From NCBI GenBank assembly GCA_964524895.1, contig CAZGFG010000004.1, positions 20,469-79,759 on the forward strand: a DNA stretch of 59,291 nt, given 5' to 3'. The notes under the pieces were generated by a model that saw only the letters and a program-made list of their open reading frames with translations, made no database searches and was not told the DNA's origin. The DNA is from an uncultured Gammaproteobacteria bacterium. GTDB taxonomy: Bacteria; Patescibacteriota; Microgenomatia; Daviesbacterales; UBA10151. Both the position numbers and the translations under genes were made by a program. Below, piece after piece: positions 5,443-59,291 of this stretch; position 1 is the first letter of the stretch, and each line of letters opens with the position of its first letter.

Positions 5443-5643
5443 ATGGCATATCAACATACCAATTCAAAAGGACAGACATATTTTCTACACAGTAAAGATG
5501 TGACTCTTCGTGGAAGCGGCAAAAGACAAACTATCTATTTTTTTAGTAAAAGTGCTGGAGATGGAGAGTTGGAAGAGCTTCCATCGGGTTACCAAGTAGT
5601 GGAAAGCCAAAGAACCGGTTTACCGGTTTTAAAAAGGAGTTAA
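5443..5643 (+). CDS. small hypothetical protein (66 aa, MAYQHTNSKG...)
   Basis: protein-like sequence starts at ATG 5443; the in-frame extension from 5359 runs through the hairpin. Confidence 0.7.
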   Translation: MAYQHTNSKGQTYFLHSKDVTLRGSGKRQTIYFFSKSAGDGELEELPSGYQVVESQRTGLPVLKRS

Positions 5644-6410
5644 GAAACTATTAGAAGCCAAAAAGCTGCGGCTAAAATGATCCTATAAATTCCAAAGACA
5701 ATAAAGCTGTGGTTTTTTAAATAATGCAGAAATAGCTTAACTACAAACAAGGCTACAATAAAGGAGCCCACAAACCCCACTGCCAGCAAAGCATATTCAT
5801 ACGAGGAGAAGGCAAACTTACTTTTAACAAGGTCGAGGATTGTTGCAGCCAGCATAGTGGGTATTGCTAAAAGAAAGGAGAATTGAGCAGCAGTTTGTCT
5901 CGTTAATCCCAGCGACAACCCTCCTAATATAGTGGCTGCCGAACGGGAGACTCCCGGAATCATAGAAATAGATTGGAATACTCCAATTAAGAAAGCCTTT
6001 TTATTGCTGATTTCCTCCAGATTATCTACATGATGTTCTTTTTCTTTGTAAATTATCTCGAAGGCAATTAAGGCCACACCTCCTAAAAATAGGGCATAGA
6101 GGGTAACCAAAACATTTCCCAGTAAAAAAGTTTTGATTATTTTATAAAAAATTAAACCCAAAACTGCAGTTGGTAAAAAAGCAATCAAAATTTTTTTCCA
6201 AACAACAATCTTTTTGAGGGAGTTAAAGTAGAGGACTACGACAGAAAGTATTGCCCCCAGTTGGATAGCAATTTCAAAAGTTTTTACAAAATCCGTTTGG
6301 GCAATTTTTAATAAATCGGATGTAAGGATTAAATGCCCGGTAGAAGAGATAGGTAAGAACTCACTGATACCCTCTACTACGGAGAGTATGAGGGCCTGCA
6401 GAAAGTTCAT
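5640..6410 (-). CDS. uppP: undecaprenyl-diphosphate phosphatase
   Basis: VEGISEFLPISSTGH and PGVSRSAATI motifs. Confidence 0.96.
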   Translation of the reverse strand: MNFLQALILSVVEGISEFLPISSTGHLILTSDLLKIAQTDFVKTFEIAIQLGAILSVVVLYFNSLKKIVVWKKILIAFLPTAVLGLIFYKIIKTFLLGNVLVTLYALFLGGVALIAFEIIYKEKEHHVDNLEEISNKKAFLIGVFQSISMIPGVSRSAATILGGLSLGLTRQTAAQFSFLLAIPTMLAATILDLVKSKFAFSSYEYALLAVGFVGSFIVALFVVKLFLHYLKNHSFIVFGIYRIILAAAFWLLIVS

Positions 6411-6499: not shown

Positions 6500-7153
6500 A
6501 TGAAGATTAGATTATTTTTCTTTCTCACAACCCTCTTTTTTCTATTTGTTTTTACAGTTTTTTCTTATTCGGTGGCCAAAGAGCATTGGCAACAAATAGA
6601 CTTTGATACAACCGTTAAATTGCAAGACCGCATCCCCCGAAAATTTGACAAATATTTTTCCTATTTCTCAATTCTCGGAAGTGCCGAAGTGACTCTAATG
6701 ATTACTTCAATTCTCGCGGGAGCCTTTTTACTGAAAAAAAGATGGCTGTCTATTTTTGGCTGGATGATGATTATACCTGCTTCCTTGGCTGAGGTTTTTG
6801 GAAAACTGGTACTTTACCATCCCGGCCCGCCGGTCTTATTCCACAGAAGCCTGATTGAGACACAGTTACCCAGCTTTTATGTCCATACAAACTTTTCTTA
6901 TCCATCCGGTCATATGACTAGGACGGTTTTCCTTCTGACAGTTTTAACCCTGCTGGCTGTGTTTTCCAAGACTGATTTGTCTTTTAAGGTGATAATTGTA
7001 CTGGGACTTGGTTTCCTGTTTTTCATGATGACACTAACCAGGGTTTATCTGGGTGAGCATTGGTTGTCAGATGTGATTGGGGGAATAATATTAGGGATTG
7101 CTTTTGGATTTTTTGCAACGGTTTTCATTCTTCCAAGAAAGCGGCCTTCCTAA
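6500..7153 (+). CDS. PAP2 family membrane phosphatase
   Basis: SYPSGH and RVYLGEHWLSDV motifs. Confidence 0.9.
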   Translation: MKIRLFFFLTTLFFLFVFTVFSYSVAKEHWQQIDFDTTVKLQDRIPRKFDKYFSYFSILGSAEVTLMITSILAGAFLLKKRWLSIFGWMMIIPASLAEVFGKLVLYHPGPPVLFHRSLIETQLPSFYVHTNFSYPSGHMTRTVFLLTVLTLLAVFSKTDLSFKVIIVLGLGFLFFMMTLTRVYLGEHWLSDVIGGIILGIAFGFFATVFILPRKRPS

Positions 7154-7513: not shown

Positions 7514-8476
7514 ATGGAACAAGTCAAAGTTGAGAATTTGATAATAATCGGGTCTGGCCCGGCAGGGCTGACAGCCGCAATCTATGGTGCCCGTGGAGGA
7601 TTAAATCCCCTGGTGGTATCCGGGAGGCAGGCTGGAGGCCAATTGATGCTAACAACGGATGTTGATGATTTTCCGGGTTTCCCGGAGGGTATCCAGGGAC
7701 CGGATTTGATGGCAAATATGCGCAAACAGGCCCAGCGCTTTGCCACACGTTTTATAGACGAAGACGTTATATCGGTTGATTTAACGGGCAAACCCTTTTC
7801 TGTCGCAACAGAAAGCCGGAAATTAAAGACTAACTCGCTGATTATAGCCACCGGAGCTCAAGCTATGTGGTTGGGGTTGCCTTCCGAACAAAGACTGATT
7901 GGTAAAGGGGTATCTGCTTGTGCCGTTTGCGACGGGTTATTTTTCAAGGATAAGCATGTAGCCGTTATTGGGGGAGGGGATACAGCCATGCGCGAAGCCC
8001 AATATCTTTCCAAGGTTTGTCGTCAGGTTACTATTATTCACCGTCGCGATAGCCTGCGGGCTCAACCGGCGCTGCAACAGACAGTCAAGTCAAAGCCCAA
8101 TATTGACTTTATTTGGAACGCGGTAGTGGAGGAGATTTTGGGAGAGGAGAAGGTAACCGGAGTTAGGATAAAGGATCTAAAAAGTGAAGAAGTGAAAGAT
8201 ATCCAGCTTGATGGGGTGTTTGTAGCAATAGGCCACAAACCAAACACGGCCTTTTTAAAAGGGCAGATAGAATTGGATGAAAAAGGTTATATTGTAGCCA
8301 AAGGGGAAACCCAAACTTCAGTGGAAGGGGTATTCCACAGTGGTGATGTTTCCGATATCAGGTATAAACAAGCGGTGACAGCTGCCGGAGCAGGTACTAA
8401 AGCGGTTTTTGATGTTGAGGAATATTTAGAAAAAGTGAAATTGCCTACAGCAGGGGAGGTTAATGATGGCATATAA
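7514..8476 (+). CDS. trxB: thioredoxin-disulfide reductase
   Basis: GSGPAG, CAVCDG, GGGDTA motifs. Confidence 0.96.
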   Translation: MEQVKVENLIIIGSGPAGLTAAIYGARGGLNPLVVSGRQAGGQLMLTTDVDDFPGFPEGIQGPDLMANMRKQAQRFATRFIDEDVISVDLTGKPFSVATESRKLKTNSLIIATGAQAMWLGLPSEQRLIGKGVSACAVCDGLFFKDKHVAVIGGGDTAMREAQYLSKVCRQVTIIHRRDSLRAQPALQQTVKSKPNIDFIWNAVVEEILGEEKVTGVRIKDLKSEEVKDIQLDGVFVAIGHKPNTAFLKGQIELDEKGYIVAKGETQTSVEGVFHSGDVSDIRYKQAVTAAGAGTKAVFDVEEYLEKVKLPTAGEVNDGI

Positions 8477-8945
8477 TATTCCTATGTTTACTGGATTGAT
8501 CAAACTTCTGCCTGCAAAAGAAGTTTTTGCCCACTGCGATATTCCTTGTGGGATTTATGATCCGCATGAAATGCAATTGGCGGCCCATACAATCTTAAGA
8601 ATGGTTAATCTGATAAATGAAGCCGGTTCAGATGTTCATAAGGTTGCCAGGCTGACTAAAGTGAAGGAAGAACATGCAGAGAAAGTAAAGCATGAAGTAA
8701 GGGTTATTTGGGGAGATTATTTTAAAGAAGAGCACTTAAAAGATTATCCAAACCTGCATGAGTTGGTTTTTAGGATTATGAAACTTGCTTCTAAAGCCAA
8801 ACAAGAAGTTAGTGTTGAGGCAGCCGATGAGCTTTTAGAAAATACTCAAAAATTTGCCGAGATTTTTTATAAGACGAAAGGATTAGAACCGATTAGAATC
8901 AAATCTCCTTATCCGACAGCAGGTGAAATTGTTTCTTACAAGTGA
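8463..8945 (+). CDS. sodN: nickel superoxide dismutase precursor
   Basis: Ni-hook HCDIPCGIYDP after a short pro-sequence. Confidence 0.95.
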   Translation: MMAYNIPMFTGLIKLLPAKEVFAHCDIPCGIYDPHEMQLAAHTILRMVNLINEAGSDVHKVARLTKVKEEHAEKVKHEVRVIWGDYFKEEHLKDYPNLHELVFRIMKLASKAKQEVSVEAADELLENTQKFAEIFYKTKGLEPIRIKSPYPTAGEIVSYK

Positions 8946-9217
8946 AAGTATTTCCTCTCTCCCGTTTTATAGTCCAAGGCCACAGTATGCTGCCGGTCTT
9001 AAAGCCCGGACAAAACATTCTGGTTTGGCATTGGTTTTTAATGCCCAAAGCAGGAGATTTGGTGGTTTTTCAAAAAGAAGGCAGAAGTATTGTTAAAAGG
9101 GTAAAGGAGATAGAAGATAAAAAGCTATGGGTAGCAGGGGATAATGCTGGGGATAGTAAAGATTTTGGTTGGCTTAACAGATCAGAGGTTCTGGGCAAAG
9201 TTGTCTGGATAGGTTAA
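8942..9217 (+). CDS. sodX: NiSOD maturation protease (S26 family)
   Basis: GHSMLP, IVKRV, GDN..DS; overlaps the sodN stop. Confidence 0.88.
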   Translation: MKVFPLSRFIVQGHSMLPVLKPGQNILVWHWFLMPKAGDLVVFQKEGRSIVKRVKEIEDKKLWVAGDNAGDSKDFGWLNRSEVLGKVVWIG

Positions 9218-14566: not shown

Positions 14567-14832
14567 TTGCGGGGGTGGGAGTTGAACCCACTGCCTCAAG
14601 ATTATGCTCCTACCCTGATTACTCAAGGGGTTGGACTATATCATCACCCCGACATTAGTCGGGGGCCCGGCGTGTAGTCTCTACGGGGTCCTTCGACTAT
14701 GCTCAGGACTTCCCTCGGATATTGTCCTAAATGTTTAGGGTGTCTACCGATATAGCCAGGTTTGCTCCGACAATTACTCATCGGAGGGCCCACTTCTACT
14801 AGCCTTGTGTGCAACCGTTACACTTCCCCGCG
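14567..14832 (-). tRNA. initiator-type tRNA-Met (CAU) interrupted by a group I intron; exons 14801-14832 and 14567-14606
   Basis: spliced product CGCGGGG...CAAGG CT|CAT AA TCTTG...GTGGG TTCAACT CCCAC CCCCGCA A, with the C1:A72 mismatch typical of initiators. Confidence 0.9.
14607..14800 (-). ncRNA. group I self-splicing intron, 194 nt, IC3-like, inserted between U33 and C34
   Basis: P1 GGCU/GGCC with U.G at the splice site, P2 with GUAA loop, P3 CCUGGC/GCCGGG, R GUAGAGACUA, S GAUAUAGUCC, P8, P9 with GUAA loop, terminal G. Confidence 0.92.
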
Positions 14833-14844
14833 ATAACATTAGGT

Positions 14845-14908
14845 ATTCTATGCCCAAGTTATCTTTATGTCAAGCTTTCTTGACATTTAATAAATACTAT
14901 TGTAGTAT
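14845..14908. promoter_or_regulatory. back-to-back divergent sigma70 promoters
   Basis: minus strand TTGACA-N17-TAGAAT (14873-14845) for the tRNA; plus strand TTGACA-N17-TAGTAT (14880-14908) for the HTH gene. Confidence 0.8.
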
Positions 14909-14929: not shown

Positions 14930-15610
14930 ATGATTCGTAAATTCAAAGAACACCAAAAAGCTTTATTTCTAAGACAGAATGGTAAAAGCATTCGGCAAAT
15001 AGCAAAGTTACTCAAAATAAGCCCTAGCACTGCTAGCAAATGGTGTAAACATATTAAGCTATCTCCTAAACAACAAGAATTTTTATTAAATAGTGAATCT
15101 AGAACCTCTCATTTAAGACGCCTAGCAAAACAATCTCATAGGAATAAATTGTTGAGGGTTAAAGAGTTAACTAGTGAAGCTAAAGCTGAAATTAAGCATC
15201 TTAATAAAAACGAACTATTTTTAACCGGTTTAGCACTTTATTGGGCAGAGGGATTTAAAAGTTTGAAGGAAGGGAGAGTGGGTTTCTGTAACTCAGATCC
15301 TAAAATGATTAAGTTTTTTATTAAATGGCTTAAAAGATCTTTTGATATAAAGCCGGAAGATTTAATTTTAAGGGCAGAATTTAATGAGTCTCATGAGTAT
15401 CGTAAGGAAGAGATAGAAAAGTTTTGGTCAAAAACTACTAGGATTCCGAAAGAACAGTTTGAGAGGTCTTTTTACCACAAATCTATATGGTTGAAGAGAT
15501 ATGAGAATCCAGAAAATTACTATGGAGTGTTAAGGATAAGAGTGCGTAAAAGCAGCGAGTTGCTGACTAGAATTAGAGGATGGATTGACGGTCTTAGATA
15601 TGCAGCCTAA
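14930..15610 (+). CDS. HTH + single-motif LAGLIDADG-like protein
   Basis: N-terminal HTH (SIRQIAKLLKISPSTASKW), LTGLALYWAEG, FCNSDP.MI.FF, YGVLRIRV. Confidence 0.7.
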   Translation: MIRKFKEHQKALFLRQNGKSIRQIAKLLKISPSTASKWCKHIKLSPKQQEFLLNSESRTSHLRRLAKQSHRNKLLRVKELTSEAKAEIKHLNKNELFLTGLALYWAEGFKSLKEGRVGFCNSDPKMIKFFIKWLKRSFDIKPEDLILRAEFNESHEYRKEEIEKFWSKTTRIPKEQFERSFYHKSIWLKRYENPENYYGVLRIRVRKSSELLTRIRGWIDGLRYAA

Positions 15611-21788: not shown

Positions 21789-22994
21789 GTGATTTTATAC
21801 GAATTTGAAGGCAAAAAACTTCTTTCTCAAGCCGGGATAAATATTCCCAAAAGTGAGTTATTAGAGTTTGCAGATGGGCAAATAACCATCAGTAACCCCC
21901 TTATTTTAAAAGCTCAAGTTCTATCCGGTGAAAGGGCACAGGCAGGAGGAATTATTCGAATTCAGAATTCAGAATTCAGAATTATGGATGAAGTACAGAA
22001 ATTATTCGGAAAAATTATCAACAAAGAAAAAGTAGAAAAGATTTTGGTGGAGGAGATGGTTAATTTTGAAAAGGAGTTTTATGTTTCCCTTTCTTATGAT
22101 ACTGATACCAGGGGTCCGATTCTGACTATTTCACAGCAAGGGGGAACCGGAATAGAGGAGCGGGATGTTAAAATTTTTCCGATTGATCCACTAACCGAAT
22201 CTGTCATTCCGAGTAATAGCGAGGAATCTCAAAACTTAAATCAGGAGATTTTTCACTTTGTTCGAAATGATATAACTAAAAAATTGGTTAGTCTGTTTTT
22301 CAAGCAGGACTGCCTTCTTTTGGAGATAAATCCACTGGTTCTAACAAAGGGTGGAATTTGGATGGCTTTGGATGCCAAGATTAAACTGGATGATGATGCC
22401 CGTTCCCGCCACCCGGAGTGGGACTTTGCCCCCAGGGGTGTCCCCGGCTATACACCTACCCCCAGCGAGATTGCCGCCAAAAAAATTGATGAAGGAGATT
22501 ATAGAGGAGTAGCCGGTTCGACCTATTTCGACCTCCCCGGCAATATTGCCATTATGTCTTCCGGAGGGGGAGTATCCCTGACAGCTATGGATGCCCTGAT
22601 TGCTGCAGGGGGAAAGCCTGCCAATTTTACCGAATATTCAGGTAATCCGCCCAAGGAAAAGGTGACTAAATTAACCAAGATAGTTTTAAACAAGCCTGAT
22701 ATTGCTGGACTTTGGGTCATTGGGACAGTAGCAGCCAATTTTACAGATATTTATGAAACTTTGTCGGGTTTAATTGAAGGCCTTCGACAAGCTCAGGCTG
22801 AACTTGGTACCAAGTTCAAGTTCCCAATAGTAATTAGAAGGGGAGGACCAAGGGACGAGGAAGCTTTTGGAATGTTAAAACAAGTTAAAGACTTTGATTT
22901 ACATCTGCAAGGCAAGGAGACAACTATTACTCAATCAGCCCAAACAATGGCACGACTGGCAGCAGAATTTGCTCAAAAAGGAGAAGAAAAATGA
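21789..22994 (+). CDS. ATP-citrate lyase/citryl-CoA synthetase beta-like subunit (ATP-grasp plus citrate-binding-type domain)
   Basis: LYEFEGK, LEINPL, LDAK, SGGGVS, ANFTEYSGNP, ANFTDI. Confidence 0.8.
   Translation: MILYEFEGKKLLSQAGINIPKSELLEFADGQITISNPLILKAQVLSGERAQAGGIIRIQNSEFRIMDEVQKLFGKIINKEKVEKILVEEMVNFEKEFYVSLSYDTDTRGPILTISQQGGTGIEERDVKIFPIDPLTESVIPSNSEESQNLNQEIFHFVRNDITKKLVSLFFKQDCLLLEINPLVLTKGGIWMALDAKIKLDDDARSRHPEWDFAPRGVPGYTPTPSEIAAKKIDEGDYRGVAGSTYFDLPGNIAIMSSGGGVSLTAMDALIAAGGKPANFTEYSGNPPKEKVTKLTKIVLNKPDIAGLWVIGTVAANFTDIYETLSGLIEGLRQAQAELGTKFKFPIVIRRGGPRDEEAFGMLKQVKDFDLHLQGKETTITQSAQTMARLAAEFAQKGEEK
22202..22272. repeat. TGTC-tagged palindromic element inserted within the coding sequence
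   Basis: TGTCATTCCGAGTAATAGCGAGGAATCTC-N14-GAGATTTTTCACTTTGTTCGAAATGATA; left arm nearly identical to 12678-12705. Confidence 0.85.
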
Positions 22995-23893
22995 GCCTAC
23001 TTTTGCCAGTTGGGGCCAAAATAATCGGTCAGGGAATTACCGGAGGAGAGGGGTCCAAGATGTTGCCAAAGATGCTTTCTTACGGCACCAATATTGTTGC
23101 CGGAGTAACCCCCGGTAAAGGGGGACAACAGCTTGAGGGCGTACCGATATTTAACTCTATCAAAGAAGCTATAGAAGTAGTTGGGGCAGTTGACGGATCT
23201 GTCCAATTTGTTCCTCCACAGTTTGTTAAAGCCGCTACCCAGGAAGCCATAGAAAGTGGAATTAAATTTATTTTAATCGGAGCAGAAAAGGTTCCTACCA
23301 AAGATGCTGCCTACATTTATGCTTTAGCCAAAAAAGAAGGAGTTTCTATCATAGGTCCAAACTCGGTTGGGTTAATCTCTCCTCATCGCCATTTTAGGAT
23401 TGGGCTAATTGGAGGAATGGTTTCCGAAAATGTGTTTGCAGACGGGCCTATTGCAGTTATTTCCAAATCCGGCAGTATGACAGCGGAGATTAGCCTGATT
23501 TTGAAAAATGCAGGGTTGGGGGTTTCCTGGGCAGTAGGGATAGGTGGGGACCGGATAATCGGCACTGATTATGTGGATTTCCTACTGGAGCTGGAAAACG
23601 ACCCTGCAACCAAGGCTTCGGTGATTTTTGGGGAACTGGGAGGAACTTATGAAGAAAGAGTGGCAGAATATATTAAATCCGGAAAAATAAAAAAGCCGGT
23701 GGTAGCATTTATTGGAGGGGAGTTTACCCTAAAATTGCCTTCGGAGGTGCAATTTGGGCATGCAGGAGCTATTATAGAAGGCAGTAGAGGCTTACCTGAT
23801 CACAAAAGACAGGTGCTTAAGGAAGCAGGGGTTAAAGTTGCTGAAAGTTTGGATGATATTGGTACACTAGTAAAGGAATCTTTAAATGGCTAA
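22991..23893 (+). CDS. SucD/AclA-N-like CoA ligase alpha subunit
   Basis: QGITGGEG, AGVTPGKGG, IGPNSVG, SKSGS, FGHAGA phospho-His. Confidence 0.88.
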   Translation: MSLLLPVGAKIIGQGITGGEGSKMLPKMLSYGTNIVAGVTPGKGGQQLEGVPIFNSIKEAIEVVGAVDGSVQFVPPQFVKAATQEAIESGIKFILIGAEKVPTKDAAYIYALAKKEGVSIIGPNSVGLISPHRHFRIGLIGGMVSENVFADGPIAVISKSGSMTAEISLILKNAGLGVSWAVGIGGDRIIGTDYVDFLLELENDPATKASVIFGELGGTYEERVAEYIKSGKIKKPVVAFIGGEFTLKLPSEVQFGHAGAIIEGSRGLPDHKRQVLKEAGVKVAESLDDIGTLVKESLNG

Positions 23894-24569
23894 AACAATA
23901 ACTCATAAAATCGGAAACGACGAGACAACTACTGCCATGTTTGGGGATCAGGATCACCTGGAATATGCTCAAGGTCACAGTTTTTCCCAAACTATTTTTG
24001 AGGCTTTAGTTGAAAGGCAGCCTTCGGAAAACGAGACAAAGCTTTTGGATCTAATCCTCAATCTCTCTTTTGACCATGGTCCAAATTCTCCTTCCTCCTC
24101 CAAGACTATAGAAGAAGCTAAAGAAGGGGAAGCTATGGGTGAGGCTGTCGGGGAGGGGATTGAGCAGATAAATGAGCATCATGGAGGCGCAGGAGAGCCT
24201 TTGATGGAGGCACTTTATAGAATTAAGAATGAGGAATTCAGAATTCAGAATTATGTTGAGCAGAATATACAGGGAGGAAAGAGGGTTCCGGGGTTGGGGC
24301 ATAGGGTATACAAAGATAAAGACCCCAGGGCCGAGTTGATAATGGAAAAAGCTTTGCAGCTTGGGGTAGGGGGGGATTTTATAGGGGTAATAAGGGAGAT
24401 AAGGGGAGAGGTAGAAAAACAGACAGGTAAAAGTTTAGCGGTCAATATTGATGGGGCTATAGCAGCGGTTTTTTGTGGGTTTGGTTTGGAGCCCAAAGCT
24501 GCAACCGCAATATTTATAATTGCCCGAACTGTAGGATTAACTGCTCACTATATGGACAGTTCTAAGTAG
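23886..24569 (+). CDS. citryl-CoA lyase / citrate synthase-like protein
   Basis: DHGP, HGGA, VPGLGHRVYK..DPR, NIDGAIAA, ARTVGL.AH. Confidence 0.88.
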   Translation: MAKTITHKIGNDETTTAMFGDQDHLEYAQGHSFSQTIFEALVERQPSENETKLLDLILNLSFDHGPNSPSSSKTIEEAKEGEAMGEAVGEGIEQINEHHGGAGEPLMEALYRIKNEEFRIQNYVEQNIQGGKRVPGLGHRVYKDKDPRAELIMEKALQLGVGGDFIGVIREIRGEVEKQTGKSLAVNIDGAIAAVFCGFGLEPKAATAIFIIARTVGLTAHYMDSSK

Positions 24570-50861: not shown

Positions 50862-52136
50862 ATGGCGTATGTAGCGGATCTTCATATCCATTCCCGGTTT
50901 TCCAGGGCTTGTTCACCCCAACTTACCATTCCCAATTTGGCAGAGGCTGCCAAACTAAAAGGAATAAAGCTTTTAGGTACAGCCGACTTTTTACATCCTC
51001 TTTGGTACTCGGAGTTAAAGCGTGATTTAAAAGAGGAGGGGAATGGGTTATTTGCTCATAACGGAATCAAATTTATCCTTTCCACAGAAGTTTCTTTAAT
51101 ATATTCGCATAATGGCAAAGGCCGGAGGATTCATCTTTTAGTGATGCTTCCTTCTTTTGAGTCGGCAGAAAAACTGCAGCATCAGTTGTATCAAAGACAG
51201 GCCAAACTTTCTTCCGACGGCAGGCCTATCCTTGGTATGTCAACCCAAGCTTTTTGCGAGATAGTCTTCAACATTGAGTCTAAAGCTATCTTGATTCCGG
51301 CTCATATATGGACGCCTTGGTTTGGCATGTTTGGCTCACAGTCAGGTTATGATTCTTTTAATGAATGCTTCGGTCCCTTTTCAGAAAATATTTATGCTAT
51401 TGAAACGGGGATGTCTTCTGACCCGGCGATGAACTGGCGGGTTGGGCAACTGGATTCAAAGTCGATTGTTTCTTTTTCAGACCCGCATTCTTTGCCAAAA
51501 ATGGGTAGGGAAGCAACAATCTTTGCTGGAGAATTAAGTTACCCGGGTCTCTTAAGTGACTTAAAGGAGCAGGGAATTGAGGGTACAATTGAGTTTTACC
51601 CGGAGGAGGGAAAATACCATTTTGACGGTCACAGAAATTGCCAATTTTCCCAACCGCCCCAACAAACCAGGAAAGCGGGTACTGTTTGCCCCAAATGCGG
51701 GCGGGATCTAACAGTGGGAGTTATGTACCAGGTAGATAAATTAGCAACCAGGGACAGTCAGGAGCTAGGAATTAAGAGTCAAGAAGGCTGGGTGATTAGT
51801 GAGACTTTAAATAGGCCAAAATACAGAATGTTGGTGCCGCTGATGGAAATAATAGCAGAAGCGTTTAATGTTGGTGTAGCAAGCCAAAAGGTAGATTCTG
51901 AATACAAAAAACTCATAACCTCTTTGGGAGATGAAATCTCTATTTTGACGCAAATAAATATAGAAGAAATAGCCAAAACCGGTGGTGCAAAAATAGCGGA
52001 GGGAATAAGTAAAGTCAGAAGCGGGGATTTAGTTATAGAACCTGGTTATGATGGAGTATACGGGGTAGTTAAAATTTGGAATGAAGAGGAAGACAATGGT
52101 CAGGAATCTGTTCCACAGCTTGGGTTATTTGATTAA
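50862..52136 (+). CDS. endonuclease Q family protein (PHP domain plus Zn finger)
   Basis: DLHIHSRFSRA, IPAHIWTPW, IETGMSSD, SFSDPHS, GKYHFDGH, CPKCG. Confidence 0.9.
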   Translation: MAYVADLHIHSRFSRACSPQLTIPNLAEAAKLKGIKLLGTADFLHPLWYSELKRDLKEEGNGLFAHNGIKFILSTEVSLIYSHNGKGRRIHLLVMLPSFESAEKLQHQLYQRQAKLSSDGRPILGMSTQAFCEIVFNIESKAILIPAHIWTPWFGMFGSQSGYDSFNECFGPFSENIYAIETGMSSDPAMNWRVGQLDSKSIVSFSDPHSLPKMGREATIFAGELSYPGLLSDLKEQGIEGTIEFYPEEGKYHFDGHRNCQFSQPPQQTRKAGTVCPKCGRDLTVGVMYQVDKLATRDSQELGIKSQEGWVISETLNRPKYRMLVPLMEIIAEAFNVGVASQKVDSEYKKLITSLGDEISILTQINIEEIAKTGGAKIAEGISKVRSGDLVIEPGYDGVYGVVKIWNEEEDNGQESVPQLGLFD

Positions 52137-53601: not shown

Positions 53602-54018
53602 TCATCGGCAATTATGGCAAACTCCGAAGAACTCTAAAGAGTGGCCGATCGGTTTAAAGTCCAATTTTTTCATAATCTGCATCTCTTTCATATCCAGATC
53701 TTTTTCCATGGGTATATCAACTACTTTTTGACAGTTGATGCAGATGATGTGGTGATGATGGCTACCTGCTATTTCATACCGCTTCCTGCCTTCTCCAAAA
53801 TCAACTTCCTGTAGAATCTTCTGTCCTTGTAGAAAATCTACCTCTCTGTAAACAGTACTTTTATTTGGTTCCAATCCCTTCTTGGATAAAATTTTAAGCA
53901 GGTCGGTTGTAGAGAGCGGAGAGTCGGCGTTAAATAAAATTTCCACCAAAGCCTGCCTGATTTTTGTACTTTTGTGCCCTCTCAACTTTAAGTTTTCCAT
54001 AATTTTTTTGTTATCCAT
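53602..54018 (-). CDS. Fur family regulator (Zur-like)
   Basis: STVYR, HHHHIICINC, GVCHNC; start probably MDNKK at 54018. Confidence 0.9.
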   Translation of the reverse strand: MDNKKIMENLKLRGHKSTKIRQALVEILFNADSPLSTTDLLKILSKKGLEPNKSTVYREVDFLQGQKILQEVDFGEGRKRYEIAGSHHHHIICINCQKVVDIPMEKDLDMKEMQIMKKLDFKPIGHSLEFFGVCHNCR

Positions 54019-54045
54019 AATCCCGATACAATTATAGCATCTATA

Positions 54046-54073
54046 CATTTATATTACGACCGTGATATAAATG
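54046..54073. repeat. 28-bp palindromic site 1 (CATTTATATTA-CGACCG-TGATATAAATG)
   Basis: 11-6-11 inverted symmetry; overlaps the start of the PaaX-like gene. Confidence 0.75.
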
Positions 54074-54601
54074 AAGGGAATGAAAACTAGAGGGGCAATC
54101 AGTACCAAGAAAAACCTTACCAATTTTATTTTGCTGGCTTTGGAGAAGACGGTTGATGGGTATGTAAGGCTAGAAGACTTTGCTTATAACCCTGGATATT
54201 ATGCTTATGGAGATGGTTGGGATTTCCCTTTAAAGAAGGCCTCCTTATCTCAAGCTTTAAAAAGGCTAAGAGAAAATGGGCTGGTGGATCTTGTAGATAA
54301 TGAAAAGTTGATTTTGAGGCTAACTGATCGTGGCAGAGAAAAAGCAGTTTTGGCAAAGATTAAATTTGACAGTCAAAAGTGGGATGGTAAATGGAGGTTG
54401 GTAATATTTGATATTCCAGAGAAAAAACGATCGGTGAGGGATCTTTTAAGGTCCAAACTCAAACAGTGGGATTTTGTATATTTGCAGCAAAGTGTCTGGG
54501 TTTCCAAGAAGGATTGTACTGAAGTTTTAAGAAACTTTATCAAAAGTGTGGGAATAGAGGATTGGGTAATGGTTATTGAATCCGACAACACTGGCCTTTG
54601 A
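54071..54601 (+). CDS. PaaX-like protein (wHTH plus Cas2/VapD-like ferredoxin fold)
   Basis: LTDRG, WDGKWRLVIFDIPEKKR..RD.LR..L, LQQSVW. Confidence 0.85.
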   Translation: MKGMKTRGAISTKKNLTNFILLALEKTVDGYVRLEDFAYNPGYYAYGDGWDFPLKKASLSQALKRLRENGLVDLVDNEKLILRLTDRGREKAVLAKIKFDSQKWDGKWRLVIFDIPEKKRSVRDLLRSKLKQWDFVYLQQSVWVSKKDCTEVLRNFIKSVGIEDWVMVIESDNTGL

Positions 54602-54603
54602 TG

Positions 54604-54631
54604 CATTTATGCTACGGTCGTATGATAAATG
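54604..54631. repeat. 28-bp palindromic site 2 (CATTTATGCTA-CGGTCG-TATGATAAATG)
   Basis: same arms as site 1 with the central hexamer reverse-complemented; starts 3 bp after the stop. Confidence 0.75.
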
Positions 54632-54665
54632 AAAATAGTTAAGATGAAAATGTTTGTCCCTTGAC

Positions 54666-54684
54666 AATGCAACCTAGTTGCGTT
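54666..54684. promoter_or_regulatory. candidate Zur/Fur operator AATGCAAC-N3-GTTGCGTT
   Basis: 8-3-8 palindrome between TTGACA (54661) and the -10 of the ZIP gene. Confidence 0.55.
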
Positions 54685-54697
54685 TTAATACCAGGTA

Positions 54698-55447
54698 ATG
54701 GGGACATTGTTTTATATTCTGTTATTTTCCTTTATCGGATCGGTAGTATCACTGGTTGGAGGAGTTTTATTGTTATTTAGGGAAAAATTGGCCCTTAAAA
54801 TCTCCCATTATTTGTCCTCTTTTGCAGCCGGGACATTGCTGGGAACCGCTTTTTTTGACCTGTTACCGGAGGCTGCAGATCAAGCTAAAGGGGAAGCTGT
54901 TTTTCAATGGACACTAGCAGGTTTGTTAATCTTTTTTCTGCTTGAGAGGTTTATCCATCATCACCACGACAGCCCCAAAGAAGATGCGGTGGTGCCCTTG
55001 ATTGTGATTGGTGATAGTATCCATAATTTTATTGACGGTGTGGCTATGGCAGCTACTTTCTTGGTATCAATTCCCTTGGGGATTGTAACTTCTTTGGCTG
55101 TGGCTGCCCATGAAATTCCCCAGGAGATAGGAGACTTTGGCTTAATGCTGCATAAAGGTGTTGCCAGGAAGCGGGTATTGTTAATTAACTTTTTGAGTGC
55201 CTTGGCTGCAATGGCCGGAGCTATATTAACCTATCTGGAGAAGGATAGGATAGAAGGGTTATTACCGGCAGTTTTAGGCCTAACTGCAGGATTTTTTATC
55301 TATATTGCAGCTTCCAACTTAATTCCGGAGATTCATAATAGGGAAAACCAGCAAATGGCTTTTTGGGAGACAGTTGTGCTTCTTTTGGGAGTATTGGTAA
55401 TCTTTATTGCTATCTCTACCCTGGAGACTTTGGCCTTACCACATTAA
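54698..55447 (+). CDS. ZIP family metal transporter (ZupT-like)
   Basis: FAAGTLLG..FFDLLPE, HHHH loop, DSIHNFIDG, HEIPQEIGDF. Confidence 0.94.
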   Translation: MGTLFYILLFSFIGSVVSLVGGVLLLFREKLALKISHYLSSFAAGTLLGTAFFDLLPEAADQAKGEAVFQWTLAGLLIFFLLERFIHHHHDSPKEDAVVPLIVIGDSIHNFIDGVAMAATFLVSIPLGIVTSLAVAAHEIPQEIGDFGLMLHKGVARKRVLLINFLSALAAMAGAILTYLEKDRIEGLLPAVLGLTAGFFIYIAASNLIPEIHNRENQQMAFWETVVLLLGVLVIFIAISTLETLALPH

Positions 55448-55507: not shown

Positions 55508-56470
55508 ATGCCTGAAACAGACAAACTAGCATATAAAGCATATCCCTTAGGATTTTGTGCAGGAGTGGCCTGGTCTATTAGGAATGCCGAACAGGCTTTG
55601 GCAGATGGCCCAGTAGTAGGGTTGGGTAATCTGGTTAATAATTTTCCTGTTGTCAGAGATTTAGAGAGCCGAGGGATGACTTTTGTGGAAACAGTTGCAG
55701 AAATAAAGCCTGGGTCTACTGTAATGATTAGTGCCCATGGATTATCAGAGCGGGAGCGGCAAAGATTGGCAGAAAAAGGGACTAAAGTAATTGATAGTAC
55801 CTGTCCGCTAGTGGCCAGTGTGCATTCAAGAATAAAGCGAGCGCGTGAACTTGCAGAGAGTATGGGGCGCGATTGGGAAGTTTTGTATATATGTAAGGAT
55901 CTACAACATCGAGAACCTCACGGAGTAATTGACGAAGCTCCTGGAAACGTTACACCTATCAGGACAGAGGAGGATATAAAAAACTTTGCCCCAGTAGCAG
56001 GTAGGTTATATTTTATAGATACTCAAACTACCTTAAACATGGGTAAGGCAACTGTTTGGATTCAGCAAATCAAGGATAAAATACCAGATGTAAAAGTTCC
56101 TCCTTTAGGTGACGTTTGTTTTGCGACCAAAAATAGACAAGGAGCTCTAAGCCTTGTTTTGGCAGAGAAACCACAGGTTCTGTTGGCGTTTGGCTCCAAG
56201 ATCAGTTCCAATACCGGAGAATTGGTTAAAATGGGGAAGGCAGCCGGGGCAGAAGTCTTTTTGGTAGAAACTGTAGACGAAGTTAAATTAGAACTAGTAG
56301 CAGGAAAAGCTAAAGTTGCTGTTACAGCCGGTGCTTCTGCAAATCCTGCAGGACCAGATGCCTGTATGGAGTTATTAGATTCTTTGGGGTACAAAAGAAT
56401 GGATATGGTTTTTGGCAGACCTGAACCTTCTTATTTTGACACAACTCCTTTTACCGAAGATTTTAGATAA
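55508..56470 (+). CDS. ispH: 4-hydroxy-3-methylbut-2-enyl diphosphate reductase
   Basis: GFCAGV, SAHG, DSTCPLV, TQTT, VCFATKNRQ, SSNT, TAGAS; all three Fe-S Cys present. Confidence 0.92.
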   Translation: MPETDKLAYKAYPLGFCAGVAWSIRNAEQALADGPVVGLGNLVNNFPVVRDLESRGMTFVETVAEIKPGSTVMISAHGLSERERQRLAEKGTKVIDSTCPLVASVHSRIKRARELAESMGRDWEVLYICKDLQHREPHGVIDEAPGNVTPIRTEEDIKNFAPVAGRLYFIDTQTTLNMGKATVWIQQIKDKIPDVKVPPLGDVCFATKNRQGALSLVLAEKPQVLLAFGSKISSNTGELVKMGKAAGAEVFLVETVDEVKLELVAGKAKVAVTAGASANPAGPDACMELLDSLGYKRMDMVFGRPEPSYFDTTPFTEDFR

Positions 56471-56476
56471 ATAGGT

Positions 56477-57028
56477 GTGAATATGGCAAACCAACAAATA
56501 ATTCTAGCTTGTGATGAGTCAGGTAAATTCACAGGTGAATACATCCCGAAAGAAGTAGGGCATACAGGTGAGGGGAAGAGGCATTTGGCTATTGCGGTTT
56601 TAATTTATAACTCCAAAGGGGAAGTATTGCTACAAAAGAGAAAACACAAAGTCTTTGATGATATTTGGGATGTAACTGGTGCCACACACCCTCTCCATAA
56701 AAAAGACGGAACTGATGAGACTTTAGAGGAGGCAACTTTAAGGTGTTTGGAAGTTGAATATGGAATAGAGCGGGAAGATGTTAAGGGTTTAAGAAATGAG
56801 GGTGCATTTAATTATTTTGCCAAATATGAGGGTTTATGTGAAAATGAACACTGTTTCCAATTTATTGGAGAATATAATGGAAAGCTTAAGCTAAATCCAA
56901 AAGTTGGATATGGGTATAAGTGGATGGATAAAAAAGAGTTTTTAAAAGATATAGAAGCAAACCCTCAAAATTATTCCCCCTGGGCAGTTGCAGGAGTTGA
57001 AATTTTGAGGGGAAATAATTTCTTCTAA
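56477..57028 (+). CDS. type 1 isopentenyl-diphosphate isomerase-like NUDIX protein
   Basis: GH...RHLAIAV, LLQKR, THP, ENEHC, SPW; Ala at the position of the catalytic Cys. Confidence 0.75.
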   Translation: MNMANQQIILACDESGKFTGEYIPKEVGHTGEGKRHLAIAVLIYNSKGEVLLQKRKHKVFDDIWDVTGATHPLHKKDGTDETLEEATLRCLEVEYGIEREDVKGLRNEGAFNYFAKYEGLCENEHCFQFIGEYNGKLKLNPKVGYGYKWMDKKEFLKDIEANPQNYSPWAVAGVEILRGNNFF

Positions 57029-57558
57029 TGTCCGAAGTAGATGAAATCTTAGAAATTGTAAATAAATCCAACAGGATAATTGGCCAAAGAACCAGAGGAG
57101 AAATTTACAAGAATGGTTTTCTTCATAGAGCTGTTTCTGTTTTTATTGTTAACTCAAAAGGACAGATTTTTCTTCAGCAAAGATCTAAATTAAAGATGAA
57201 ATATCCACTTGCCTGGGATGTTTCTGCAGCAGAGCATGTTAAGGTAGGGGAGAGTTATGAAGATGCTGCTTTAAGAGGGATTCAGGAAGAGTTGGGGATT
57301 GATACCAAACTTAAAAAAGTTAGGGGGGTACACCTTCAGCACAATGGACATGCCAGTAAAAAAGATAAAATTATTGATGATGAATTTGTAGTCACTTTTA
57401 TAGGAGTTTATGATGGAAGAATTAACCTTGATTCTGAAGAAGTAAATGATGGAAAATTTTTTCAGATAGATAAGATTAACAAGATGATTGATTCTGGAAA
57501 GACAGAGTTTACAACCTGGTTCTTGGATGACTGGAGATATTTAATTGAGAATCTGTAA
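57028..57558 (+). CDS. second IDI-like NUDIX hydrolase
   Basis: LHRAVSVFI, QQRS..K..YP..WD, GESYEDAALRGIQEELGI. Confidence 0.85.
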   Translation: MSEVDEILEIVNKSNRIIGQRTRGEIYKNGFLHRAVSVFIVNSKGQIFLQQRSKLKMKYPLAWDVSAAEHVKVGESYEDAALRGIQEELGIDTKLKKVRGVHLQHNGHASKKDKIIDDEFVVTFIGVYDGRINLDSEEVNDGKFFQIDKINKMIDSGKTEFTTWFLDDWRYLIENL

Positions 57559-57576
57559 AAGGGTATAATTGTCTGA

Positions 57577-57792
57577 ATGATCCCAGAGTTAACTGAAATA
57601 AAAGCTGGAGTTGGAGCGTTAATTATAAATCCTGACGGAAAATTTCTTGCAATAAGAGAAACGATCCAAGATTATTATGAGTATCTACGAAGTCCGGCTG
57701 ATTATGTTCCCAGAATTCATGCTCAAGTTTCAGGAAAAATTCCACTAGAAATATTTGATTTTTTAGAGGAGTATAAGGAAGAAGAACATTAA
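57577..57792 (+). pseudogene. internally deleted NUDIX paralog of 58534..59217
   Basis: N-terminus resembles the N-terminus and C-terminus resembles the C-terminal third of ORF 58534; Nudix box absent. Confidence 0.55.
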
Positions 57793-57794
57793 CA

Positions 57795-58526
57795 ATGCTT
57801 CACAATACCCATGCTTATTTGGCATCAAAGTTATATAAATCAGAAGATGCTCTTTTGCTAACAGGAAGCATCCTCCCGGATATAGCCGTTACAAAAATTA
57901 TAACCTGGGATAAAGGACTTCATGGAAAAGAAAACTTTGAAAGTTTTTTTAAGTTTGTAGAAAAAAATTATCCTGATTTTTTGAATTTAAACAAAGGCAT
58001 ACTTGCACACAATATAGTGGATGATTTTACTCACAAAGATTATTTTGGGGGGATAGGCTATGCATATCAAAATAATAAAGAATTGTCTAAATTGGTTAGT
58101 AAATACTATGGTCTAGATGAAAAAAGAGCAGAGGGGATTGCTCATAATTATATAGAAAGTGGGGTAGATATACTGCTACTTAGGGAACATCCGGATATTC
58201 AGAAGCAGATTAGGGAAGCTGTTGGGCGGATAAACAAAAAAGATCTGGCGGATCTTTTAAGTGACTATTTCAAGGGGGATAAAAGTAAATTTTTTGCCGC
58301 TTTGTTGCAATTTTTAGATCTCTTTACTAAATATGATTTTGCTAAAGGAGATAATTGGATTTTATTTTGGGGAGATTTAGAGAAGCTACTTTCTTTGAGG
58401 GATATTGGGGTTCAACACAGGAAAGTATTACTTAATAAATCGGTGAACATAGTTAAGAATACCCACAAAGACTTTATAAATTATTCTATAAAAGAAGGTT
58501 TGAAAAAATCCTATAGTGGGGTATAA
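57795..58526 (+). CDS. zinc-dependent phospholipase C-like metal-binding protein
   Basis: N-terminal HNTHAY, GSILPD, H..D..TH, H.YIE pattern. Confidence 0.55.
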   Translation: MLHNTHAYLASKLYKSEDALLLTGSILPDIAVTKIITWDKGLHGKENFESFFKFVEKNYPDFLNLNKGILAHNIVDDFTHKDYFGGIGYAYQNNKELSKLVSKYYGLDEKRAEGIAHNYIESGVDILLLREHPDIQKQIREAVGRINKKDLADLLSDYFKGDKSKFFAALLQFLDLFTKYDFAKGDNWILFWGDLEKLLSLRDIGVQHRKVLLNKSVNIVKNTHKDFINYSIKEGLKKSYSGV

Positions 58527-58533
58527 TAATTAA

Positions 58534-59217
58534 ATGATTGACCAGAAAGCAGAGTTGGTTGCAGGAGTTTGCCCGCTTTTATTTAAGCAAGAACAGCCGG
58601 AAACGGTATTAGTGGTCCATGAGTTAACAGCAAAGAAAATTACTGGAAAATATGTAGGTATGTGGGGTTTAGGATATGAAACAGTCGAAGCAGGGGAGAC
58701 CCACAGGCAAGCAATTGACCGTTATTTTCAAGAAGAAGTGAGAGTAATCCAAGGCCAAGTTTTTACCCCGGAGGACTTAGAGGCTTCAAAATTATGTATA
58801 GTGAGGATTTCTCCTCCGGAGATGGAAGCCTGGGTACACGCATATCCTTATCCAGTATCAAAAGACTTTGCGGTAGAAAGAGGAGATTTTAAGGATGAAA
58901 TAGGCAGATCGGCTTGGGTAGATGCTACTAAAGTCCTGGAACTAGAAGGCAGTAGAAATGGCATTATTTTTCGTCCAGGTACATATGAAATTATCCGCGC
59001 TCATTTAGAAAAACTTTTGCAACCAGATTCATTTGTTACAAGAATACACGCTACACCCTCAAATTTACCAAACTGGGACCTTTTTAGATTACTAGAAGAG
59101 GGTTTCAATCAAATAGAAGCTTTGTACCATTTGGGGATTGACCCAACCCTTTTATCAAATTCCCCTGATTCAATCCGCTCATTATCATTACCTGAATCCC
59201 CAAGAGCCCTCTTTTAA
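58534..59217 (+). CDS. divergent NUDIX hydrolase
   Basis: WGLGYETVEAGETHRQAIDRYFQEE, a degenerate Nudix box. Confidence 0.65.
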   Translation: MIDQKAELVAGVCPLLFKQEQPETVLVVHELTAKKITGKYVGMWGLGYETVEAGETHRQAIDRYFQEEVRVIQGQVFTPEDLEASKLCIVRISPPEMEAWVHAYPYPVSKDFAVERGDFKDEIGRSAWVDATKVLELEGSRNGIIFRPGTYEIIRAHLEKLLQPDSFVTRIHATPSNLPNWDLFRLLEEGFNQIEALYHLGIDPTLLSNSPDSIRSLSLPESPRALF

Positions 59218-59291
59218 TTTCTAATATTTTCCCTTTCATTCCTCCTGTAACATCATGTGGATTATTTGCAGTGATCCCTTCTAAAACCTGC
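59105..59291 (-). CDS. isopentenyl phosphate kinase-like amino-acid-kinase family protein, C-terminal fragment (truncated by the window; not in the ORF track)
   Basis: manual translation QVLEGITANNPHDVTGGMKGKILEIKRGLLGIQVMIMSGLNQGNLIKGLGQSPNGTKLLFD*; DVTGGM..K and terminal GT motifs. Confidence 0.75.
   Translation of the reverse strand, partial: QVLEGITANNPHDVTGGMKGKILEIKRGLLGIQVMIMSGLNQGNLIKGLGQSPNGTKLLFD

Follow-up and report, generated by a model that had tools for sequence, protein, structure and literature searches.

The methylerythritol phosphate (MEP) pathway is the bacterial route by which five-carbon (C5) isoprenoid units are made. It is unresolved how the ultra-small bacteria of the candidate phyla radiation (CPR) come by the C5 units that go into their essential cell-wall lipid carrier. 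Hoshino and Gaucher (2018) found MEP genes to be only sparse in CPR bacteria and reported that, in the Microgenomates, the gene for isopentenyl phosphate kinase (IPK) is typically syntenic with genes for a type 1 isopentenyl diphosphate isomerase (IDI-I) and a cis-prenyl synthase, even where other pathway genes are missing; they called the function of IPK in CPR bacteria uncharacterised, and the role of this archaeal-type kinase is an acknowledged open question (PMC6107057). In plants, as the work of Henry et al. (2015, 2018) is summarised in PMC8248349, IPK and a Nudix hydrolase form a regulatory pair acting on isopentenyl phosphate (IP) and isopentenyl diphosphate (IPP). Here we describe a gene cluster at the 3′ end of a 59,291-nucleotide stretch of DNA (hereafter the window; contig CAZGFG010000004.1 of GCA_964524895.1, positions 20,469 to 79,759) from a Candidatus Daviesbacteria-like bacterium of the Microgenomates. 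The cluster holds genes for a divergent IspH (IspH*), for IDI-like and other NUDIX proteins and for an IPK, and on balance we favour the view that it is an MEP-derived terminal module coupled to chain elongation.

Results

An operon that converges on a kinase gene

From position 55508 to the end of the window, six co-directional open reading frames (ORFs) follow one another with an intergenic spacing of −1 to 18 nucleotides (nt), which is operon-like packing. In the order ispH*-nudA-nudB-orf71-plcLike-nud3 they lie on the plus strand and face ipk on the minus strand, and 55508-59291 is thus a tightly packed operon converging on a kinase gene. Its features are the following.

55508-56470, plus strand: IspH*, divergent IspH (Pfam LYTB, E 1.4e-52)
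56477-57028, plus strand: NudA, IDI-type-1-like NUDIX protein, 183 aa from GTG (Pfam NUDIX, 1.2e-10)
57028-57558, plus strand: NudB, YfcD/IDI-like NUDIX hydrolase, 176 aa (Pfam NUDIX, 8.5e-20)
57577-57792, plus strand: orf71, 71 aa, probable remnant of a Nud3 paralogue (similarity to the C-terminal part of Nud3)
57795-58526, plus strand: Zn-dependent phospholipase-C-like (PLC-like) ORF, 243 aa (Pfam Zn_dep_PLPC, 26.8 bits, exactly the cut-off)
58534-59217, plus strand: Nud3, 227 aa, divergent member of the NUDIX family whose C-terminal extension is conserved (Pfam NUDIX, 18.5 bits, below the cut-off)
59105-59291, minus strand: 3′ end of ipk, last 61 codons and stop, the gene being cut by the window (IPPK_Arch, E 5.6e-6)

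The original prediction had described an isoprenoid-precursor cluster at this place, and all of the items it listed are present where it put them, far beyond chance; the PLC-like ORF is one that it overlooked.

An exact-protein look-up returned public contigs of several samples, with 100% identity to the window in every overlap. One of these contigs, L001, shares 906 nt with the window at 100% identity and reaches 6 kb further, and past ipk it carries a gene for an extracytoplasmic function (ECF) sigma factor on the ipk strand and, divergent from these two, genes for a trans-prenyl diphosphate synthase (IDS), a YjbQ-family protein, UppS (TIGR00055, 236 bits; cut-off 110) and an HD hydrolase. 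This continuation into IDS-YjbQ-UppS indicates that the part seen in the window is the first half of a larger cluster leading from C5 to C55 isoprenoids. A promoter and terminator scan of the cluster gave no signal above the shuffled expectation, and an Rfam scan found no riboswitch inside or near it.

Directly upstream of ispH*, positions 53602-55447 hold genes for a Fur-family regulator (minus strand), a regulator with a PaaX/Cas2-like domain and a ZIP metal transporter; a ZIP gene lies upstream of ispH* in the related locus L015 as well. This neighbourhood is a possible link to the metal supply of the Fe-S enzyme.

IspH* has one substitution in an otherwise conserved active site

IspH* scores 179 bits with Pfam LYTB (cut-off 24.5) and 174.3 with the NCBIfam equivalog TIGR00216, below the cut-off of 187.85. 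Alignment to E. coli IspH (whose numbering is used here) indicates that the Fe-S cysteines C12, C96 and C197 are kept, as C17, C99 and C204, in agreement with the original prediction. Kept as well are the catalytic and proton-relay residues E126, H124 and T167, and H74, Q166, T168, S225, S226, N227 and S269 of the diphosphate pocket. The sole changed active-site residue is H41, which is Asn (N44, in the motif GNLVNN), so that the diphosphate pocket is incomplete. H41 is part of this pocket and holds the substrate diphosphate (PMC8837944). The replacement of this first conserved His, which had been noticed earlier, is real and fixed in a clade: among the best 120 homologues in a collection of 5.8 billion proteins, position 41 is Asn in 7 of 7 members of the IspH* clade and His in all 113 other proteins.

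Members of the clade are 83, 68 and 47-51% identical to the window protein, with ordinary IspH next at ≤37%, and IspH* is ≤39% identical to any IspH outside its clade. Further marks of the clade are the motifs PLGFCAGV, DSTCPLV and ISSNT, an insert of 7-11 residues, and LYICKD in place of GHxG. With a dN/dS of 0.12 against the 83%-identical L015 orthologue, IspH* is under purifying selection and shows no decay. An AlphaFold2 model built from the clade alignment (pLDDT, the predicted local distance difference test score, 87.8) predicts the three-domain IspH fold; Foldseek aligns it over its full length to E. coli IspH (3KE8) and P. falciparum IspH (4N7B) with a template modelling (TM) score of 0.83.

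The clade is rare. A scan of 185,579 GTDB species-representative genomes with the clade alignment returned two members, in GCA_016187025.1 (a Candidatus Daviesbacteria metagenome-assembled genome, MAG) and in GCA_964636275.1 (labelled Gammaproteobacteria). A scan of the genome collection with the single IspH* protein gave zero matches, its patterns being over-specific, and the 80 loci recovered from the JGI metagenome contigs scanned were all ordinary IspH at ≤39% identity, with no member of the clade among them. The contig of GCA_964636275.1 that we inspected (L017, CAZWRN010000002.1), titled 'uncultured Gammaproteobacteria bacterium', has a Microgenomates/CPR-like gene order, and proteins of this assembly are 53% (Pth), 53% (the MJ0043_C-domain protein, window 50862-52136) and 73% (UppS) identical to those of the window or its continuation; the Gammaproteobacteria label is probably wrong.

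NudA and NudB are IDI-like proteins without the catalytic cysteine

The best NCBIfam match of both NudA (for which an alternative ATG start lies at 56483) and NudB is IDI, in each case below cut-off: NF002995 gives 81 for NudA and 94 for NudB (cut-off 127), and TIGR02150 gives 61 and 65 (cut-off 105.8). The YfcD score of NudB is 59 bits. Both proteins have Ala at the position of the catalytic Cys67 of E. coli IDI (A69 in NudA, A68 in NudB), which bears out the earlier description of two IDI-like NUDIX genes with this replacement. Because both carry Ala at Cys67, the best match of each in the PDB is the C67A mutant of E. coli IDI (1OW2); NudB further matches DR0079 and YfcD. NudA keeps the IDI metal ligands H25, H32, H69, E114 and E116 together with Y104 and W161, and its Nudix box (RCLEVEYGI) is degenerate, as in IDI. 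NudB is without H25 and Y104, and its Nudix box (RGIQEELGI) is of the hydrolase type with both Glu kept.

Position 67 is Ala in three and Ser in three of six NudA orthologues, and this variation indicates that it is not a conserved catalytic residue; across the orthologues of NudA and NudB together it is Ala, Ser or Gly. NudA has a dN/dS of 0.12 against its L015 orthologue. We searched 1.84 billion cluster representatives for the NudA subfamily. The first canonical sequence (C67/K55/R83) comes at E ~4e-19. In the ~45 best full-length representatives listed ahead of it, position 67 holds A, S, I, T or V, K55 is replaced by His in most (by S, A or R in a few), and R83 is replaced by C, A or S in most. 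Below that E value canonical proteins are common, with Cys-less ones still occurring. Judged by these residues, NudA belongs to a distinct, wider Cys-less IDI-like subfamily. Four representative proteins (P0365, P0368, P0372 and P0375) are fusions of a Cys-less IDI-like domain with UppS or polyprenyl synthase, which argues that the NudA-type domain, whatever its chemistry, is functionally tied to C5 supply for prenyl transfer. Canonical Cys-type IDI domains also occur in fusions, with polyprenyl synthase (P0400) or with an amino-acid-kinase/IPK-like domain (P0452). A literature search for IDI lacking Cys67 returned nothing useful.

The convergent gene encodes an archaeal-type isopentenyl phosphate kinase

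The fragment of ipk at the end of the window reads ...DVTGGMKGK...NGTKLLFD before its stop codon, as had been described for the convergent gene. The full kinase, taken from L001, is 265 aa long and scores 251 bits with NCBIfam IPPK_Arch (cut-off 120), against 65 for ArgB, 46 for PyrH and 37 for FomA; its best match in the PDB, end-to-end, is the IPK of M. thermautotrophicus (3LL9, E 1e-48). It has the GAGSFGH motif with its catalytic His, and DVTGGM as a C-terminal motif. The profile scores and the alignment to 3LL9 thus identify the protein as a bona fide, archaeal-type IPK, clearly set apart from ArgB, PyrH, ProB and FomA, and the original assignment stands.

The cluster in related bacteria

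We compared six IspH* loci, which have the following gene orders (>< marks convergence; percentages are the identity of IspH* to the window protein).

Window: IspH*-NudA-NudB-orf71-PLC-Nud3 >< IPK-sigma / IDS-YjbQ-UppS
L015 (83%): IspH*-NudA, inverted NudB, ThiL-like kinase in the IPK slot, sigma, IDS
L008 (68%): IspH*-NudA-NudB, sigma, IDS-YjbQ-UppS, with no IPK at the locus
L108 (51%): IspH*-NudA-NudB-IDS
L012 (47%): IspH*-NudA, IspG, Nud3 >< IPK-sigma / IDS-YjbQ-UppS
L107 (49%): MFS, IspH*-NudA-x-Nud3 >< IPK-IspG-sigma / IDS-YjbQ

The nudA gene is directly 3′ of ispH* in all six, often with overlapping stop and start codons, and the sigma factor, IDS, YjbQ and UppS genes follow in those loci that are long enough to show them. 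The overlapping nud3/ipk pair of the window (113 nt) recurs in L012 and L107 (86 nt in each), which indicates that the pair is ancestral.

Nud3 is a divergent member of its family. Its Pfam NUDIX score is below the cut-off of 21.1; its L012 orthologue scores as NUDIX, and its own Nudix box (RYFQEEV) keeps Ex7R..EE. Modelled by AlphaFold from its single sequence, Nud3 gave no usable structure (pLDDT 34). Residues 28-65 of orf71, which has no family match in Pfam or NCBIfam, are 39% identical to residues 152-189 of Nud3 (pairwise E 9e-6), and because of this C-terminal similarity we take orf71 to be, probably, what is left of a Nud3 paralogue and do not count it as a separate kind of gene. Of the further NUDIX genes that had been proposed for the cluster, one therefore stands, as the divergent Nud3, and orf71 falls away. 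Searches of NCBIfam, PADLOC and PDB sequences gave nothing meaningful for the PLC-like ORF, orf71 or Nud3. The PLC-like ORF is strain-specific, being absent from the cluster in every relative compared. We had considered whether orf71, the PLC-like ORF, Nud3 and IPK form a recent insertion; this is rejected for Nud3 and IPK, which are an ancestral pair, and the idea now covers no more than the PLC-like ORF and orf71.

Several genes in or beside these clusters deserve mention in their own right. The ThiL-like, AIRS-family kinase in the ipk slot of L015 (L015:12072-13049, minus strand) scores 139.6 bits with TIGR01379 (cut-off 184). ThiL is another kinase that converts a monophosphate to a diphosphate. 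The L015 protein may be a non-orthologous replacement of ipk, or may reflect a thiamin link with the neighbouring YjbQ. The YjbQ/UPF0047 gene (L001:3278-3853, with orthologues in L008, L012, L107 and L110) always lies between the trans-prenyl synthase gene and uppS, and in the lineage its stop and start codons often overlap those of its neighbours, a placement that suggests an unrecognised role in prenyl metabolism. In L012, the locus of GCA_964636275.1, the stretch upstream of ispH* (L012:6148-9934) encodes a major facilitator superfamily (MFS) transporter, a protein of 603 aa whose similarity to aminoglycoside/choline-kinase-like (APH) proteins is weak, and a HAD phosphatase of the beta-phosphoglucomutase family; in L107 an MFS transporter gene is directly upstream of ispH*.

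Related loci point to an MEP ancestry of the cluster

The ispG gene lies inside the cluster in two deeper members of the IspH* clade, L012 and L107. A search with the in-cluster IspG retrieved two more loci. L110 has the order UppS-YjbQ-IDS / sigma-IspG-Dxr, followed by the start of IspH, and L111 has sigma ... IspG-Dxr-IspH, with the canonical motif IVHN. L110 is 53% (sigma), 51% (IDS), 42% (YjbQ) and 74% (UppS) identical to the window cluster, values comparable to those of L012 and L107, so that a lineage equally related to the window has committed MEP genes in the corresponding position. In further agreement, a Dxr homologue search returned named Dxr proteins of Candidatus Daviesbacteria, Curtissbacteria and Blackburnbacteria, and two of those from Daviesbacteria belong to GCA_016176395.1 and GCA_016186955.1, where each gene stands alone. 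CarB of the Dxr-positive GCA_016186955.1 is 68.4% identical to that of the window, and the same value holds for CarB of GCA_016187025.1, the nearest genome with IspH*. Taken together, the ispG genes of L012 and L107, the sigma-ispG-dxr-ispH order of L110 and the Dxr of sibling Daviesbacteria point to descent of the cluster from an endogenous MEP pathway.

Other searches were less informative. A link between Dxr and an IspH* genome, sought by accession and sample, led only to other Daviesbacteria assemblies or to unrelated Logan contigs; IspG is ~60% identical even to Armatimonadota homologues, and the list of its homologues is too shallow to inform; and a literature search on Daviesbacteria and mevalonate returned nothing useful.

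Other features of the window

Genes for UppP/BacA (5640-6410, minus strand; Pfam 240 bits) and a PAP2 phosphatase (6500-7153, plus strand), which correspond to recycling steps for the undecaprenyl carrier of the cluster, lie 49 kb away from it. Three adjacent ORFs at 21789-24569 (plus strand) together resemble a split ATP-citrate lyase, with the domains ATP-grasp_2 and Citrate_bind, then CoA_binding and Ligase_CoA, then the C-terminal domain of citrate synthase; such an enzyme would be an unusual source of acetyl-CoA for a CPR genome. A match to the Rfam group I intron family (RF00028; 52.9 bits, gathering score 50) lies at 14612-14891 (minus strand), beside an ORF (14930-15610, plus strand) with the LAGLIDADG-like motif YWAEGFK. 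Read from the sequence text only, 8463-9217 (plus strand) shows a Ni-superoxide-dismutase-like ORF (HCDIPCGIYDP) followed by a small signal-peptidase-like ORF.

Discussion

[quoted passage not shown] The HMBPP would most likely be supplied by an ispG gene predicted to lie elsewhere in the genome. NudA, which is always coupled to IspH*, is a putative isomerase-like or IPP/DMAPP-binding protein that would handle the two products. NudB and Nud3, as Nudix hydrolases, would probably convert prenyl diphosphates to monophosphates, and IPK would phosphorylate IP and dimethylallyl phosphate (DMAP) again, giving, by analogy with plants, a loop for IP/IPP homeostasis and recovery. The C5 units would then pass to the adjacent prenyl synthase and UppS, which would make the undecaprenyl carrier for the cell wall, and the ECF sigma factor may tie expression of the cluster to the state of the envelope.

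Several observations weigh against this model. The case is built from sequence, synteny and a fold model of IspH*, and the enzyme activities are predicted. H41 is in contact with the diphosphate of the substrate and does not vary elsewhere, so that its replacement may have altered the kinetics or specificity of IspH*. Classical isomerase chemistry by NudA is unlikely, given that Cys67 is missing and that Ala and Ser alternate in its place. No other enzyme of the MEP or mevalonate pathway was found in the window by ORF inspection and Pfam scans of 19 ORFs. The clusters of the window, L015, L008 and L108 contain neither ispG nor dxr, and no named Dxr of GCA_016187025.1, the one annotated IspH* assembly, is among the top 120 Dxr homologues.

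These last absences are what one would expect had the lineage lost the upstream MEP steps, with IspH*, NudA and IPK turning HMBPP or IP/DMAP scavenged from a host into IPP and DMAPP, an alternative that we regard as possible, if somewhat unlikely. Within the IspH* clade the deeper members alone have ispG in the cluster, and the subclade of the window lacks it there; dxr, which L110 and L111 have at the equivalent position, is never found in IspH* clusters, and in L107 ipk takes the slot after ispG. Two sibling assemblies from the same study as GCA_016187025.1 do appear among the top Dxr homologues. The MFS transporter genes adjoining or near ispH* in L107 and L012 speak for this reading, as does the strong divergence of an IspH that is nevertheless under purifying selection, and IPK often accompanies IDI-I in CPR genomes even where other pathway genes are absent (PMC6107057). 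Absence from a list of 120 matches and from a MAG is, however, weak evidence. The retention of ispG in two clade members means that at least the step from 2-C-methyl-D-erythritol 2,4-cyclodiphosphate (MEcPP) to HMBPP is endogenous there, sibling Daviesbacteria have Dxr, and no importer of HMBPP or IP was identified in the cluster loci. To our knowledge, no such importer has been described. The original prediction of a salvage hub in a cell without a full MEP pathway had assumed that absence, and in this respect the evidence from relatives does not support it and points to MEP ancestry; salvage itself keeps some probability through the genes missing from the clusters of the window's own subclade. 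Its fuller form, in which a Daviesbacteria lineage shed the upstream MEP steps and uses the H41N IspH, the Cys-less IDI-like partner, the Nudix proteins and IPK to convert HMBPP/MEcPP or IP/DMAP of the host for its undecaprenyl carrier, we consider a more doubtful proposal still.

Two further explanations are less likely than salvage. IspH* may have been neofunctionalised together with NudA, either acting on another substrate (for example reducing 4-hydroxy-3-methylbut-2-enyl phosphate to IP and DMAP for IPK) or releasing a single product that makes NudA necessary. The strict coupling of ispH* to nudA, the inserts and motifs specific to the clade and the presence of IPK in the ancestral cluster are consistent with such a change, as are the clade-unique H41N in the diphosphate pocket (PMC8837944) and the changes in the NudA subfamily at both basic diphosphate-binding positions (K55 to H; R83 to C, A or S). 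The other diphosphate ligands of IspH (H74, H124, Q166, T168, S225, S226, N227 and S269) are, however, invariant, Asn can still form a hydrogen bond to phosphate, and ispG, whose product makes HMBPP, is adjacent in two members, and we consider this explanation improbable. We give least credence to a genome that uses the mevalonate route, with IPK as its last step or an accessory and IspH* as an orphan relic. Most Microgenomates have mevalonate genes, and their IPK is syntenic with IDI-I and a cis-prenyl synthase (PMC6107057), and the split ATP-citrate-lyase-like trio of the window could supply acetyl-CoA. Neither the window nor any related locus contains a mevalonate gene, however; the clusters of relatives carry the MEP genes ispG and dxr instead, IspH* is under purifying selection, and the two pathways are usually mutually exclusive (PMC6107057).

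The MEP-derived terminal module, as we would still describe the cluster, is a compact and testable set of genes, and it raises the question of whether an IspH with Asn at position 41 works. Whether the widespread Cys-less 'IDI-I' of CPR bacteria is an isomerase bears on published inventories in which such proteins are counted as IDI, and the combination of IPK with Nudix proteins poses the question of whether they form, in bacteria, an equivalent of the IP/IPP control loop of plants or else a salvage route. If the upstream MEP steps are truly absent, the cluster would represent a novel type of metabolic reliance on the intermediates of a host; if salvage is true, it would be the first natural salvage of isoprenoid precursors by MEP-terminal enzymes and would give the 'enigmatic' CPR IPK a physiological role.

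Comparison with known systems

Compared with canonical bacterial IspH/LytB (E. coli, 3KE8), IspH* shares the predicted fold (TM 0.83), the Fe-S cysteines, E126, H124, T167, H74 and S225/S226/N227/S269, and differs in the H41 to Asn substitution, the insert of 7-11 residues, LYICKD in place of GHxG, an identity of ≤39% and scores below the NCBIfam equivalog cut-offs. With type 1 IPP isomerase (E. coli Idi) the comparison is of a similar kind. The Nudix fold is common to both, and NudA shares H25, H32, H69, E114, E116, Y104 and W161, whereas Cys67 is Ala or Ser, K55 is His and R83 is Cys; NudB, with no H25, no Y104 and a hydrolase-type Nudix box, is more distant, and both proteins score below the equivalog level. 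The plant pair, as it is summarised in PMC8248349, likewise places an IP-to-IPP kinase alongside Nudix hydrolases, which could catalyse the reverse step, whereas the components in the window are bacterial, encoded in an operon next to IspH, and include Nudix proteins whose prenyl-phosphate substrates are putative.

The closest described arrangement is the synteny of IPK, IDI-I and prenyl synthase in CPR bacteria, which is already published (PMC6107057) and in which, as here, an archaeal-type IPK is clustered in Microgenomates with an IDI-type-1-like gene and UppS/IDS. The cluster in the window differs in that IPK is joined by genes of the MEP terminus (ispH* and, in relatives, ispG) and not by mevalonate genes, in that its 'IDI-I' is without the catalytic Cys, and in that the ECF sigma factor and YjbQ belong to it as constant members. 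What is new is the coupling of such a cluster to MEP-terminal genes, an IspH whose H41N is fixed across its clade and whose constant partner is a Cys-less IDI-like protein, and a CPR type of 'IDI-I' that, as read from its sequence, has neither the catalytic cysteine nor the two basic diphosphate ligands.

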